Assembly: GCF_000009965.1 (NCBI RefSeq)
Contig: NC_006624.1
Location: forward strand, 1,020,001-1,052,000
Direction: 5' to 3'
Source: Thermococcus kodakarensis KOD1
Lineage (GTDB): Archaea; Methanobacteriota_B; Thermococci; Thermococcales; Thermococcaceae
Length of the DNA: 32,000 bases
Under the pieces are notes generated by a model. That model was not told where the DNA came from. It did no database searches and was given only the letters and a program-made list of their open reading frames with translations. The number at the start of each line of letters is the position of its first letter. Positions within the stretch are counted from its first letter, which is position 1. The position numbers and the translations under genes were made by a program. Of this stretch, positions 19,723 to 24,757 are shown one piece after another.

Positions 19723-20628
<906 letters not shown>

Positions 20629-20658
20629 TTCACCTTTTCTGTTTTCATATTTTGTTTC
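20629..20658 (+). terminator. oligo-T terminator candidate after map
   Basis: 'ttcaccttttctgttttcatattttgtttc' follows the TAA at 20626-20628 directly. Confidence 0.45.
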
Positions 20659-20776
20659 ATGCAGGATTAAACAAACCAAACTGAGGAGAGCCTGCCCTGT
20701 GAAAGTTTACCCTCAGAAGAGCCATTGGTGAATTTAAGGATAGAGGAGGAAAGACCCGGAGGGCCAGGCCCTTGAA

Positions 20777-20863
20777 TGGCGCCGGGGCAGGGATTTGAAC
20801 CCTGGTGGGCGGACGCCCACGGGATCTCGAGTCCCGCGCCTTCCCAGGCTAGGCTACCCCGGC
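20777..20863 (-). tRNA. tRNA-Ser (anticodon CGA), CCA encoded
   Basis: Hand-folded minus strand. Acceptor GCCGGGG/CCCCGGC, D-arm GCC..GGC with an AGCCTGGGAA-type loop, anticodon stem CGGGA/TCCCG with loop CT-CGA-GA. Long variable arm TGGGCGTCCGCCCAC, T-arm CAGGG-TTCAAAT-CCCTG, discriminator G, then CCA. Length is 87 nt. Confidence 0.9.
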
Positions 20864-20892
20864 GCTCTTAACCATCAACACTCCCCGCGAGA

Positions 20893-20910
20893 GACTTTAT
20901 AAATTTTTTT
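20893..20910 (-). promoter_or_regulatory. BRE/TATA candidate for tRNA-Ser
   Basis: On the minus strand 'AAAAAAATTTATAAAGTC' lies about 33-47 nt upstream of the mature tRNA 5' end, compatible with a short leader. Confidence 0.45.
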
Positions 20911-21577
20911 AGTCCCTTATCTCTGAAAGAAGAACCGCCACACAAAATCTGGATCAATGGACGATGAAATTAGGACATACTTAGTTGGTTTTAGTCTCGT
21001 CAGGTTTAAGAGTTGAACTCATAGTTGGGGTTAATCTTAAGAGAAAGAAGACGAAGGTAAAGAGGGTGGGAAAAGTGGTCATAAAAAGTACTGATGACAA
21101 GACCAATGGACTCAGAATTCGTGGGGCACTTGAAATCCGGCTCTCGCCGGAGATTTAGTGGATTTGGTGAAATCTGGTGAGATAGATATCAGTAAGATTG
21201 AGCAGAGGCCTCTTAAACTTAAGCGATACCAGAAGTTTGACTATTGACCAAACAGATACTACCAAAGTTTGGATTATAACTGTGGAGTCGATCACAGCCT
21301 TTCTGTAAAAACGTCTTGTTTGCGGCTCTTTTTTAGTCATTGAGCCGAAAGGTATATTTTCTCCAAAATCCACAATCTCAAGCTCCCCGCCTTTCTTTTT
21401 CTCTTTTGAAAACCCTGCCCTTTAGGATAGAAGGAGTCAGCTTTCTCAACTTCAAGAGACTATAGAAACACCACTCAAACCTACTAGAGGATTTAAATGG
21501 CATTGAGTTAGAAGGGAGGAAGCATATGAAAGAAAAGTTAATAATCCAGATTTCCCAAACATCTCAAGGTGTTAAGT

Positions 21578-21880
21578 ATGGCCGTGAGTGTGAAGAATTC
21601 GGAGGGAATAAAACTTCTCATTGAGGAGGTTGCGAAGGCCGTTGGTGTTTCACCAAAAGAGCTTATCGAGTATTATGAGTGGAAGGCTAACCGGGAGAAG
21701 CTAAAGAAAATGAAACCCACGAGGATGACTAAAAAGGAGGCTAAAAACTTCATACTCTCCCAGAAGGGAAAGAGGAAGATAAGCGAGGAAGAGGCCATTA
21801 AACTCTATTATGAAGCTGAGGAGGAGATCAAGAAATGGGAGAAAATCGAAAGAAAACTAAAGAAACTCGGCTTAGAGTAG
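21578..21880 (+). CDS. putative antitoxin / small Lys-rich protein with an HTH-like N-terminus (100 aa)
   Basis: ATG 21578 lies behind AAGGTG; GTG 21569 is an alternative start. 'LIEEVAKAVGVSPKELIEYY' looks like a helix-turn-helix, and the C-terminal half is Lys/Glu-rich. It sits immediately upstream of the PIN gene and overlaps it by 46 nt. Confidence 0.5.
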   Translation: MAVSVKNSEGIKLLIEEVAKAVGVSPKELIEYYEWKANREKLKKMKPTRMTKKEAKNFILSQKGKRKISEEEAIKLYYEAEEEIKKWEKIERKLKKLGLE

Positions 21881-22329
21881 TTATTGATACTTCAGTATTA
21901 TTCTCTGGTGCAATCTCCACTCGAGGTTATGCTTTTGAGGTTCTCGAACTCTTAGCTACGGGGAAAATAACAAACTACATTTCCTCAAAAACTCTCAAGG
22001 AATATGAAGAGAAGCTTTATTCAAAAAAGGCGCTGAGGTATATTTCCCTTGAGGAAGCTAAGGGGTATATTCAATCAATGAAGGCATTATCAAAAAGGGT
22101 TCAAATTAAGCGTTCATTCCAGAAGTCTAAAACTATTCTTGAGAAAGTCCGTGATCCGAAGGATATTCCGTTTCTGGACGTTGTGTATAACGCTAAGGCC
22201 GACGTGCTGATAACCTATGACCGTAAGCATTTGTTGAGAATCAGGAACAAAGAGAAGAAGTTTAAGCTCGGAAGACATGAGTTCTATATCCTCACGCCGA
22301 AAGAGTTCATAGAATTCTACAAAAAGTAA
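21835..22329 (+). CDS. PIN-domain ribonuclease toxin (PIN_3 / COG1569-like)
   Basis: 'RVVIDTSVLFSGA' (first acidic residue), 'KEYEEKL', 'DPKDIPFLDVVYNAKADVLITYDRKHL' (distal acidic residues). 164 aa, with the RBS-like GGAGGAG upstream of ATG 21835. Confidence 0.75.
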   Translation: MGENRKKTKETRLRVVIDTSVLFSGAISTRGYAFEVLELLATGKITNYISSKTLKEYEEKLYSKKALRYISLEEAKGYIQSMKALSKRVQIKRSFQKSKTILEKVRDPKDIPFLDVVYNAKADVLITYDRKHLLRIRNKEKKFKLGRHEFYILTPKEFIEFYKK

Positions 22330-22422
22330 TAATTCCATGATAAAATTTTAGCTCTTCACTGGGCGCTGGGCGAAAGATTTATTAACCTAACGTTACTTAA
22401 ATTCTGACGGGGCCTAGCAAAG

Positions 22423-22431
22423 GTTTATATC
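22423..22431 (+). promoter_or_regulatory. TATA box candidate for the CBS/HPF-like gene
   Basis: 'gtttatatc' lies about 40-48 nt upstream of ATG 22471, with the RBS AAAGGAGGTGA in between. Confidence 0.4.
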
Positions 22432-22470
22432 ATATGCCGCCCTAATAATAACTGAAAAGGAGGTGACAGC

Positions 22471-23646
22471 ATGGTCGGAATCCAGGTGCAAGAGGTAATG
22501 ACCGACAACTTCCAGAAGATCGACATCAATGCCCCGCTTTCTGAGGCCATAGGAATCTTCGAGAAGGAAGACCCCGATCTCATTCTCGTGTTCGATGGGA
22601 ACCTGTACAAGGGTGTATTGACCCAGGACTTGATCATACGCTCCCACCTCAAGTGGGATCCAACCAAGGCCAAGGTTAGGGACGTTTACAAGCCCGCTCC
22701 CGTTATCAAGCCCGATGAGGATCTGAGCAAGGCCGCCAAACTCATGATTGAGGTTGATCTCCGCTCGCTCCCAGTTGGGGAGAGCAAGGCCGAGATAATC
22801 GGCGTTGTAAACGATATGGCCGTCCTTGAGAGAGTTGCCCAGGAGAAGTTCGGCAAAGGTAAAGTTGAGGAGTACATGACCAAGGACGTCATAACACTCA
22901 AGCCGAGCGACACCGTCGCCAAAGCCCTGGCTGTAATGCGCGACCACGCGATTTCAAGGATACCCATAGTCAACGACGAGGGCAAGCTTGAGGGACTGGT
23001 TACCCTCCACGACCTCATAATCAGGTTCATCAAGCCGCGCTTCAGGGCCCAGGCTGGAGAGGTTGCGGGCGAGAAGATACCGCCCTTCAGCATGCCCCTC
23101 AGGGACGTCATGATAAGGGGAGTCATAACCATACTGCCCGACGCAACCGTAAGGGAAGCCGTCGCAACCATGAAGGACAACGACATCGACGGCCTTGTCG
23201 TTGTCAACGAGGACAACAAGGTAGTCGGAATCCTCACGGTCAAGGACCTCCTCCTGCCGATATCAAAAATGACCGAGAAGGAGGCAAGGTTCTACCTCCA
23301 GCTCGGCGGTGATGCTTCAATACTCAGCGACTTCACGAGGGAGCGCATAATACAGGACATAAAACGCTTCGTTGATGGATACGAGGATCTCCTTGGACAG
23401 GAGGGCATCATCTACCTCTACATCCGCCGCTTCCCTGAGAAGCTCAGGGGAGTTCACCTCTACCAGGCCAGGATGAGGGTCGTCACCGACAGGGGAACCT
23501 TTGTGGCCACGGGCGAGACCTGGGGTGCCATCCAGGCAGTTCACGACGCCCTCAGGGCCATTGAGAGACAGCTCCTCCAGAAGGCCGAGCTTGAAAAAGA
23601 TGTAAGGTACGCGAAACGCTTCATCGAGAAGCTTGGCCTTGCCTGA
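22471..23646 (+). CDS. four-CBS-domain protein with a C-terminal HPF/RaiA-like (ribosome hibernation factor-like) domain
   Basis: There are four CBS repeats. CBS1 'VMTDNFQKIDINAPLSEA...GVLTQDLI', CBS2 'KPAPVIKPDEDLSKAAKLM...GVVNDMAVLERV', CBS3 'YMTKDVITLKPSDTVAKALAVMRDHAISRIPIVN...GLVTLHDLI', CBS4 'VMIRGVITILPDATVREAVATMKDNDIDGLVVVN...GILTVKDLL'. The C-terminal aa 273-375 show the pattern discussed in findings. Confidence 0.85.
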   Translation: MVGIQVQEVMTDNFQKIDINAPLSEAIGIFEKEDPDLILVFDGNLYKGVLTQDLIIRSHLKWDPTKAKVRDVYKPAPVIKPDEDLSKAAKLMIEVDLRSLPVGESKAEIIGVVNDMAVLERVAQEKFGKGKVEEYMTKDVITLKPSDTVAKALAVMRDHAISRIPIVNDEGKLEGLVTLHDLIIRFIKPRFRAQAGEVAGEKIPPFSMPLRDVMIRGVITILPDATVREAVATMKDNDIDGLVVVNEDNKVVGILTVKDLLLPISKMTEKEARFYLQLGGDASILSDFTRERIIQDIKRFVDGYEDLLGQEGIIYLYIRRFPEKLRGVHLYQARMRVVTDRGTFVATGETWGAIQAVHDALRAIERQLLQKAELEKDVRYAKRFIEKLGLA

Positions 23647-24757
23647 AGGTCTCGAACTCCCTTTCTATCATTCCTTTCTGTTTTTCATCTAGCGTTTCTT
23701 CGTTGATCACGAGTATCATAAGGCCATTGGCGTTTAGCGTCATATCCTTAAGGTTTAGGAGAAACTTCATGGTCCGCTCAAAGCCGTTCTCAATGATGAG
23801 ATACTCAACCGAGTCAATGTAAACTGTTCTGTATCCTTTTCGAAGGGCATTTGCCACGAGGTCCGTCAGTATGTCTATGCTGGTTGGACTCACGGCATAA
23901 ACCTGGGGAGTCTCGGAGATGACGCCCTCTTTTGCCCGGGTCACCCAGAACACCAGCGATCCAGGGTGAATCTTACTCATAACGTCCATGATGTTTTCCC
24001 TGGTGATAATAACGGTACCCGGCCTTGACCACACATCCCCAATGGCCTGAACTACCTCTTCCTTGCCCTTGAACATAAAGGAGCCCTTGATTGGTTCGCT
24101 CGCACCAGAGACTGAAACTGCCCTCATAGGATAAAAGACGTACTTAACCGCACCGACCGCAGCCATAAACCTGAACAGCGCCCCCAGGAGGAAACCTATG
24201 GGTGCAAACCAGTCAATAAACCGGGTCACAGGATACGTGAGGTTGAGGGCTCCCAGAAGGATTAGGCCGTAGGGGAAGAGCCTCTCGATTGACTTTGGCA
24301 TTGTTGCCTCTAAAAGAACGTATCCAAAGTATATCATGGACAACCCAAAGATCAGATAGGGAAGGGAATATGCCACTGTGAGATTCTCAAAGAGCTTAAT
24401 GTCAGACGCAACTAGGAATATCCATATGTAAGATACTACGACAAAGATTGCCACGTACGCAACATCTTTGAAGTCGGTCTTCCCATACTTTATATGAAGC
24501 GCTCCCCACAAGAACAGTATCGCCACGGCAAAGGTTGAAACAACTGATGCAACTAGATAAGCATTCTCCTTGAAAGTTATCCCAAGTGGGTCGAGCACAT
24601 AGCTCTCCATGTCCAAAGCATCTATCAAAAAGGCAGCCGACAGCAGTACCCAGCCTTTCTCCCGGGTCTTTTTGGCCTGGTATGTGGAGGCTATAAACAG
24701 CGCCCATCGCGAGATAAAATTGAGGATTGGGATAATAAGGTCATAAAGAGCGTTCAT
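23621..24757 (-). CDS. polytopic membrane protein with a C-terminal cytoplasmic DUF835-like domain
   Basis: About 7 N-terminal TM helices precede a soluble tail: 'GTVIITRENIMDVMSKI...VFWVTRAKEG...TVYIDSVEYLIIENGFERTMKFLLNLKDMTLNANGLMILVINEETLDEKQ'. This matches my memory of DUF835, a RecA/KaiC-like fold without P-loop. Its ATG overlaps the stop of the upstream GlmU-like gene (4 nt). Confidence 0.7.
   Translation of the reverse strand: MNALYDLIIPILNFISRWALFIASTYQAKKTREKGWVLLSAAFLIDALDMESYVLDPLGITFKENAYLVASVVSTFAVAILFLWGALHIKYGKTDFKDVAYVAIFVVVSYIWIFLVASDIKLFENLTVAYSLPYLIFGLSMIYFGYVLLEATMPKSIERLFPYGLILLGALNLTYPVTRFIDWFAPIGFLLGALFRFMAAVGAVKYVFYPMRAVSVSGASEPIKGSFMFKGKEEVVQAIGDVWSRPGTVIITRENIMDVMSKIHPGSLVFWVTRAKEGVISETPQVYAVSPTSIDILTDLVANALRKGYRTVYIDSVEYLIIENGFERTMKFLLNLKDMTLNANGLMILVINEETLDEKQKGMIEREFETFRQGQASR

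Follow-up and report, generated by a model that had tools for sequence, protein, structure and literature searches.

This study identifies, with high confidence, the gene TK1186 of Thermococcus kodakarensis KOD1 as hibA, which encodes an orthologue of HibA, a ribosome hibernation factor of archaea that is named AHA in haloarchaea. The gene lies in a stretch of 32,000 nucleotides (NC_006624.1, positions 1,020,001 to 1,052,000 of the forward strand; hereafter the window), in which its coding sequence occupies 22471..23646 on the + strand and comprises 391 codons, beginning with ATG, and a stop codon. The finding is already known, the family having been published from October 2025 onward, since the description of HibA by Madru et al. 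(Nat Commun 2026, PMC13324472; preprint 10.1101/2025.10.11.676729, 11 October 2025; depositions 9SR9–9SRF and 9T7H) names TK1186 itself as HibA: in its discussion, Pab0961 and TK1186 are given as the earlier pull-down names of the protein. The case for the significance of the family is already in print for close orthologues, and what is added here is the anatomy of hibA from T. kodakarensis, namely its domains, the differences in its contact residues, its two mapped promoters with the conserved Phr-like palindrome over the distal one and the PIN cassette that parts it from its ancestral tRNA-Ser neighbour, together with the placement of a mutation from a laboratory-evolved strain in the hibA TATA box.

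Orthology and fold of TK1186

Adding 1,020,000 to a window coordinate gives the coordinate on NC_006624.1, and TK1186 accordingly corresponds to NC_006624.1:1042471..1043646 (+) in the supplementary tables of Jaeger 2014; the same offset holds in those tables for TK1182, the tRNA TKt14, TK1184, TK1185, TK1187 and TK1188. The product of the open reading frame (ORF) is 100% identical to BAD85375.1/WP_011250137.1 of T. kodakarensis KOD1, and its average mass was computed as 43,984 Da, the value in a 2010 proteomics table being 43,957 Da. A sequence search of the PDB matched Pyrococcus abyssi HibA (9SR9 chain H) over residues 1–390 with an E-value of 3.9e-218, and the sequence of this chain is identical in 9SRA–9SRF and 9T7H. 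P. abyssi HibA (Q9UYR4/Pab0961) has the same length and architecture as TK1186, which is collinear with it and ungapped to about residue 389, the identity being 84% overall, 82.9% for the CBS module and 87.7% across the HPF-like domain. The identity to HibA from Thermococcus barophilus (F0LKU5) is 83% overall, around 83% in the CBS module and 85% in the HPF domain.

In P. abyssi HibA a four-CBS module (residues 1–269) precedes a C-terminal domain (residues 270–392) with the β–α–β–β–β–α fold of HPF/RaiA, and cryo-electron microscopy (cryo-EM) located the C-terminal domain in the channel for mRNA and tRNA on the 30S subunit of the 70S ribosome and the CBS module in three positions on the 50S subunit, at the peptidyl-transferase centre (PTC), at uL5 and at the L1 stalk (PMC13324472). 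HibA inhibits translation in a lysate, for which the C-terminal domain is required, and deletion of hibA in T. barophilus gave a regrowth lag of 4 h versus 2 h and lowered the stationary-phase 70S ribosomes by about 60% (PMC13324472). An earlier reading of the DNA made without database searches (the sequence-only reading) had proposed a hibernation factor in which four CBS repeats are fused to an HPF/RaiA-like domain, and the fold, the family profile, the cryo-EM of the P. abyssi 70S complex and the genetics of T. barophilus support this.

The HPF/RaiA-like domain of TK1186 (aa 270–391; 23278..23643, + strand) is basic, with an isoelectric point (pI) of 9.3. Direct scans of the C-terminal 128 amino acids gave no relevant Pfam or NCBIfam match; the link to HPF rests on the family profile and on a structure model. 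The model, calculated with AlphaFold2 on an alignment (A2) that serves as a profile of 39 archaeal C-terminal domains, has a predicted local distance difference test score of 93.9 and contains the elements β1 (274–280, FYLQLGG), α1 (287–303), β2 (312–325), β3 (328–339), β4 (342–351) and α2 (353–388), in the order β–α–β–β–β–α. When the model was compared with the PDB using Foldseek, ranks 1–33 were all HPF, RaiA/YfiA/pY, plastid PSRP1, mycobacterial MPY or RafH, with E-values from 8.2e-7 to 5.6e-3, template-modelling (TM) scores of up to 0.81 and root-mean-square deviations (rmsd) of 2.3–3.8 Å, and the first unrelated fold, PelC, appeared at rank 34. These matches include Escherichia coli HPF (2RQL, E 1.2e-4), YfiA (4V8I, E 1.2e-4) and Listeria HPF (8UU4, TM 0.81, rmsd 2.3 Å). 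As judged from the predicted model, the likeness of the C-terminal domain to HPF is far beyond chance. The strand and helix order also agrees with the HPF layout that had been read element by element from the sequence; the C-terminal string quoted for that layout is present, although at aa 274–373 (nt 23290–23589) and not at aa 273–375 (nt 23287–23595), a trivial offset.

When the C-terminal 128 amino acids were used in an exhaustive HMMER search, 100 cluster representatives were returned, most of them proteins of 370–400 aa that end in this domain, while about a quarter are stand-alone domains of around 105–140 aa. Eight of ten stand-alone archaeal relatives match PF02482 (Ribosomal_S30AE) just under its threshold, with 14–22.9 bits against a gathering score of 23.7 bits. 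When the A2 profile was searched against PDB sequences, RaiA/YfiA/HPF proteins made up 17 of the next 19 hits after two archaeal entries; these matches, with E-values of 0.0085–0.98, are each marginal alone and are aligned in register. The strongest segment common to the profile and RaiA/HPF reads 'G.lvAsg...mY.AI..l..KLERQL', and it coincides with the C-terminal helix that had been singled out from the sequence as the hallmark of HPF. The two-module architecture also occurs in chain a of PDB entries 9L96, 9L98, 9L9C and 9L9V, a 406-aa 'CBS domain-containing protein' that matches full-length TK1186 with an E-value of 8e-39 and the C-terminal profile with 6.8e-30; a literature search for these entries, which differ from the ARC depositions, found no paper.

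CBS module and ribosome-contact residues

The whole TK1186 protein is matched by the Pfam CBS model with an E-value of 3.9e-46, and each repeat, scanned as a separate fragment, exceeds the PF00571 gathering score of 24 bits: CBS1 (aa 6–57; 22486..22641, +) with 25.3 bits, CBS2 (aa 69–122; 22675..22836, +) with 33.8 bits, CBS3 (aa 132–184; 22864..23022, +) with 67.5 bits and CBS4 (aa 211–261; 23101..23253, +) with 60.1 bits. The module is acidic (pI 5.2). Following the motif definitions in the supplement of the HibA paper (h-y-y'-h-P and G-h-h'-T/S-x-x'-D/N), adenosine motifs are found in CBS3 (ISRIP, 161–165; GLVTLHD, 175–181) and CBS4 (GILTVKD, 253–259), all of which are intact in TK1186 and invariant among the seven Thermococcales proteins of alignment A1. 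In P. abyssi HibA the CBS module binds adenosine mono-, di- and triphosphate (AMP, ADP and ATP) at the CBS3/CBS4 interface with dissociation constants of 12, 65 and 113 µM, respectively, and does not bind the guanosine nucleotides GMP and GTP (PMC13324472). Given the intact motifs, the CBS3/CBS4 pair of TK1186 probably binds adenylates, with AMP the tightest.

The loop between CBS3 and CBS4 (aa 190–207, RFRAQAGEVAGEKIPPFS; 23038..23091, +) corresponds in length and position to the PTC loop of P. abyssi HibA, residues 190–207, which reaches the peptidyl-transferase centre (PMC13324472), and 15 of the 18 residues are identical. The contact residues compared were taken from the atom-level table in Supplementary Data 1 of the HibA paper. 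Among the C-terminal residues in contact with 16S rRNA, uS7, uS9, uS11, uS12, uS19 or eS28, 46 of 53 are identical to those of P. abyssi HibA, as are 24 of the 28 N-terminal residues that touch the 50S subunit in the PTC pose; over all ribosome contacts, 70 of 81 are conserved. One of the non-conservative exchanges, from Arg347 in P. abyssi to Thr in TK1186, is found at a position where P. abyssi is the outlier among the seven proteins.

Promoters, Phr-like palindrome and genomic setting

The Shine–Dalgarno sequence GGAGGTGA (22459..22466, +), which is complementary to the 3' end of 16S rRNA, ends 4 nt ahead of the ATG of hibA. Published differential RNA-seq (Jaeger 2014, transcription start sites in Table S2) provides the transcription start sites (TSSs) and read counts used here. 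The primary TSS at 22453 (1042453) leaves a leader of 18 nt and lies 23 nt past the TATA box of the proximal promoter P1 (22417..22430, +), which consists of the transcription factor B recognition element (BRE) GCAAAGG and the TATA box TTTATAT (22424–22430). The secondary TSS at 22409 (1042409) lies 24–31 nt downstream of the TATA-like sequence TTTATTAA (22378–22385), and on the basis of this spacing CGAAAGA and TTTATTAA are proposed to be the BRE and TATA box of a distal promoter P2 (22371..22385, +). The 13 aligned Thermococcus regions upstream of hibA all share GGAGGTG and the core of the P1 TATA box, and GTTTA[A/T]AT together with a Shine–Dalgarno sequence precedes hibA in all 20 loci examined. 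The prediction that the gene has its own TATA box and a strong ribosome-binding site (RBS) is confirmed by the published start sites and by the invariance of the element cores.

For hibA, the exponential libraries gave 1390 reads on pyruvate and 2599 on sulfur, the library from pyruvate after sulfur addition gave 2027 and the stationary library 360, in which fewer than 300 reads were counted for about 97% of the transcription units; hibA is therefore highly transcribed during growth and still relatively highly in stationary phase. A laboratory-evolved strain of T. kodakarensis, able to grow without sulfur or pyruvate, has an intergenic T-to-C change at NC_006624.1:1042430, which was listed as 'upstream of tk1186' and left uninterpreted (PMC12628685). 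This position, 22430 in the window, is the last T of the P1 TATA box, which the change converts from TTTATAT to TTTATAC, and it is invariant in the 13 aligned Thermococcus promoters. The mutation would be cheap to follow up because T. kodakarensis is genetically tractable. As a separate observation, the leader and Shine–Dalgarno region ATAACTGAAAAGGAGG (22448–22463) matches ATGACTAAAAAGGAGG (21725–21740), inside TK1184, at 14 of 16 bases, which is probably a chance likeness or an internal RBS-like site.

A 24-nt palindrome, TTTATTAACCTAACGTTACTTAAA (22378..22401, no strand assigned), overlaps the P2 TATA box and is a putative Phr-like operator, the palindromic form of the Phr consensus being TTTAnnnACnnnnnGTnAnnAAAA. 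It is the sole match to the Phr-type pattern in the 32-kb window, 0.04–0.05 matches being expected by chance. Of the 20 hibA loci examined, 16 keep the palindrome (the window, L001–L009, L013, L015, L016 and L027–L029); it lies at −86 to −105 from the hibA ATG in 12 of 16 Thermococcus loci and is also found upstream of hibA in T. barophilus and in the two Pyrococcus species P. furiosus and P. abyssi, where the upstream gene is a different one. Several of the orthologue sites, for example that of L008 (TTTA-N8-TGGTAA-N2-AAAA), fit exactly the published Phr elements TTTA...TGGTAA...AAAA, taken as quoted in PMC6316755, and the authors of the HibA study state that hibA is under Phr control (PMC13324472). 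Within the T. kodakarensis promoter region the palindrome covers the TATA box of P2, sits 52–75 nt upstream of the P1 start site and overlaps neither mapped TSS. This arrangement suggests that Phr may gate P2 and that P1 would be constitutive. A third, more distal hibA promoter, which would restore the classical Phr geometry, was considered because TTTTATAAAT is conserved upstream of the palindrome in other Thermococcus genomes, and was rejected: this TATA sequence lies 21–23 nt from the 5' end of a divergent tRNA-Ser(CGA) gene, whose promoter it most probably represents.

The gene order TrkH(−), MetAP(+), hibA(+), DUF835 membrane protein(−), NTP-transferase/hexapeptide protein(−) and BacA(−) is conserved across Thermococcus, and T. 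barophilus, the host of the hibA knockout, shares the order from TrkH to the NTP transferase. The divergent tRNA-Ser(CGA) lies around 135 nt upstream of hibA in most Thermococcus genomes; in T. kodakarensis it is located at 20777–20863, 1.6 kb from hibA. A low-GC cassette of about 1.46 kb (around 20905–22368) stands between the two and ends about 10 nt before the palindrome, and this PIN cassette interrupts the region upstream of hibA in T. kodakarensis, unlike in the HibA genes of P. abyssi and T. barophilus. The low-GC islet reported next to the gene by the sequence-only reading is confirmed, with a GC fraction of 0.36–0.43 over about 20950–22450 compared with 0.52–0.58 in hibA. In the cassette are TK1184 (103 aa by ORF call) and TK1185, which encodes a PIN_3 protein, and the same gene pair is found upstream of hibA in locus L004. 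No direct repeats flanking the cassette were found, and an Rfam scan of 20500–24000 returned tRNA only. Jaeger 2014 lists four orphan TSSs inside the cassette (20925+, 21034+, 21187− and 21382+), an antisense TSS at 21868 (−) where TK1184 and TK1185 overlap, and an internal and an antisense TSS within the DUF835 gene TK1187, at 24463 (−) and 24494 (+). The 3' ends of hibA and the convergent TK1187 overlap by 26 nt (23621–23646), similar overlaps are indicated by match coordinates in L001–L003 and L008, and no hairpin terminator was found in 23560–23800. Antisense ORFs inside hibA on the minus strand, for example 22414–22947 and 22686–23243, were taken as shadow ORFs, the coding sequence itself being well supported.

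Proposed mode of action and relation to known hibernation factors

The mechanism shown for the close orthologues can be carried over to TK1186 through the identity of 83–88% per domain and the conserved contacts. The HPF-like domain would contact h44, h18, h24, h28 and h31 together with uS12, uS9, uS19, uS7, uS11 and eS28, and would block the A site, the P site and the path of the mRNA, while the tethered four-CBS disc would fill vacant tRNA sites of the 50S subunit in three alternative poses, at the PTC, at uL5 and at the L1 stalk, with the CBS3–CBS4 loop entering the peptidyl-transferase centre in the first of these. By bridging both subunits the protein may keep idle 70S ribosomes assembled, silent and protected, and the protected 70S pool would allow quicker regrowth after stationary phase or stress. 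The strong promoter P1 probably gives a high basal level of hibA, and P2, the TATA box of which lies under the Phr-like palindrome, probably adds heat- or stress-inducible expression.

Several observations weigh against this account, and the pull-down data discussed further below belong with them. PF02482, against which the sequence-only reading had proposed to check the C-terminal domain, matches neither TK1186 nor its C-terminal 128 amino acids even at E ≤ 10, and a literature search found no report of ribosome binding or of a knockout for TK1186. Two contact residues are exchanged non-conservatively. Tyr195 of P. abyssi HibA, which stacks on A2834 of 23S rRNA at the PTC and makes 11 contacts with A2834/C2833 (PMC13324472), is replaced by Ala in TK1186 (23053–23055) and in P. 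furiosus, and Phe325, which touches uS12 and the decoding base A1461, is replaced by Leu (23443–23445), an exchange found only in TK1186 among the seven proteins compared. As a result, T. kodakarensis may have a weaker or different PTC pose. At the promoters, the classical Phr geometry, in which the operator overlaps the TSS, is not matched at either start. Finally, the ribosome-bound states of P. abyssi HibA were unaffected by AMP or ATP in reconstitutions (PMC13324472).

The last point bears directly on how the binding of HibA is controlled. We lean slightly towards a simple occupancy of vacant sites, in which control would lie in the amount of HibA, set by the promoters and Phr, and in competition with tRNA and mRNA, the adenylate being structural or vestigial. 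In the orthologue, the conserved residues lie in the CBS core and not on the ribosome-contacting surfaces, the poses follow the vacant tRNA sites and nucleotide is without effect at equilibrium (PMC13324472); in T. kodakarensis, the hibA transcript is abundant in both exponential and stationary phase, and a stress-type, operator-like palindrome is conserved upstream. Harder to accommodate are the strict conservation of the adenosine motifs across Thermococcales, the selective binding of adenylates over guanylates (PMC13324472) and the reported response of related CBS factors to ATP.

The same features could be read as those of a true adenylate-gated switch, in which high AMP/ATP would load HibA on ribosomes or free it from a sequestering partner, and ATP would release it; we regard this as a tentative possibility. 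The adenosine motifs of CBS3 and CBS4 are intact in TK1186, two AMP molecules were seen on Haloferax volcanii AHA (PMC12934967), and P. abyssi HibA, besides its preference for AMP, ADP and ATP over GMP/GTP, showed an extra, weakly populated uL5 state with ATP (PMC13324472). For the CBS-only ARC factors of Methanolobus, ATP binding is likewise reported to trigger mobilization, and a sequestering partner for HibA has been suggested by the HibA authors (PMC13324472). However, native HibA–ribosome complexes showed no nucleotide, the three poses and their proportions were essentially constant with 5 mM AMP or ATP, and the authors saw no clear effect of nucleotides on ribosome binding (PMC13324472). 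Of the ligand gating suggested from the sequence alone, adenylate binding has been measured for P. abyssi HibA, whereas gating is not established, the ribosome-bound states being unchanged by AMP and ATP.

A wider and improbable extension would make TK1186 an energy-gated hub, in which the AMP/ATP ratio picks between the ribosome and replisome proteins (GINS23 and primase), coupling translational shutdown to replication, with a dosage that is set by a constitutive and a Phr-gated promoter and is under selection. It is very unlikely that the main role lies in DNA replication or recombination complexes and that ribosome association is secondary. In a 2010 pull-down study TK1186 co-purified with His-tagged GINS23 (Mascot score 451, 26% coverage) and with the primase subunit Pri-L (185, 24%) (PMC2962436), and Pab0961 belongs to a genome-maintenance pull-down network of P. 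abyssi (PMC13324472); pull-downs, however, are often contaminated by abundant proteins, and they stand against what is known of orthologues, namely ribosome-bound structures at the atomic level, inhibition of translation and an effect on the 70S pool (PMC13324472), as well as against an HPF-like fold that is a ribosome-binding module. A generic CBS regulator or a relative of IMP dehydrogenase with an ACT/ferredoxin-like C-terminal fold unrelated to HPF, suggested by database names of orthologues ('inosine-5-monophosphate dehydrogenase' or 'Dehydrogenase') and by the empty Pfam and NCBIfam scans of the C-terminal domain, is refuted by ranks 1–33 of the Foldseek search, the comparison that the sequence-only reading had named as decisive for an ACT or ferredoxin-like fold, and by the IMP dehydrogenase model TIGR01302, which reaches 72.1 bits where the cutoff is 481.5 and aligns CBS residues 71–186 only, the catalytic domain therefore being absent from TK1186.

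As an orthologue of HibA, TK1186 belongs to a family that has overturned the view of archaea as lacking HPF-type hibernation factors, that ties bacterial ribosome hibernation to energy sensing of the CBS/AMPKγ type and in which one factor shields the PTC together with the A, P and E sites. The statement of the sequence-only reading that HPF homologues are absent from archaea reflects a textbook view that is now superseded: HibA is found in 47% of archaeal genomes (PMC13324472), and AHA/HPF homologues are spread over 17 phyla (PMC12934967). On the nature of the protein itself, that reading reached the right answer.

A distant orthologue of TK1186 is H. volcanii AHA (AMPKgamma-HPF from Archaea; HVO_2384/D4GWN2), the HPF homology of which was shown by HHpred and Foldseek (Souza et al., bioRxiv 2026, PMC12934967). 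It has the same two-module architecture and the same reported logic of 30S and 50S binding, with a loop that enters the PTC and AMP at the CBS3/CBS4 pair, and its deletion harms stationary-phase survival and recovery. Two AMP molecules were seen in AHA, whereas isothermal titration calorimetry indicated one site in P. abyssi HibA, and the origin of the HPF domain is traced to the last universal common ancestor by the AHA authors but to an early bacterial transfer by the HibA authors.

Four-CBS modules are also placed on functional sites of the ribosome by Dri of Thermoproteota (9E6Q), SriA–D of Methanosarcina (9ZNF–9ZNI) and ARC-P/ARC-A of Methanolobus, and the PDB sequence search matched the CBS part of TK1186 to chains of 9znf, 9zng and 9zni. 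In Dri the CBS3–CBS4 loop is at the PTC as in HibA, although Dri sits there in the opposite orientation. Adenylate sensing has been proposed for these CBS-only factors; unlike HibA, they contain no HPF/RaiA-like domain and adopt different poses, and they rarely co-occur with HibA (PMC13324472). The γ subunit of eukaryotic AMPK is likewise a four-CBS adenylate sensor, with a weak but significant match to TK1186 (E of about 1e-5); it is a kinase regulatory subunit without a ribosome-binding domain, unlike HibA.

Bacterial HPF/RaiA (YfiA, pY) and plastid PSRP1 share with the C-terminal domain of TK1186 the β–α–β–β–β–α fold and the 'KLERQL' motif in the β4–α2 region, with an identity of only 9–22% between the bacterial proteins and the TK1186 domain, which differs from bacterial HPF in two archaeal insertions, between β1 and α1 and in the β2–β3 hairpin, and in a longer terminal helix. 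The HPF domain of HibA is fused to an N-terminal CBS module, whereas bacterial HPF stands alone or carries a C-terminal dimerization domain. The HibA orthologue occupies the same 30S channel as bacterial HPF; in contrast to bacterial HPF, it holds single 70S ribosomes, 100S dimers not being reported for HibA in the part of the source consulted.

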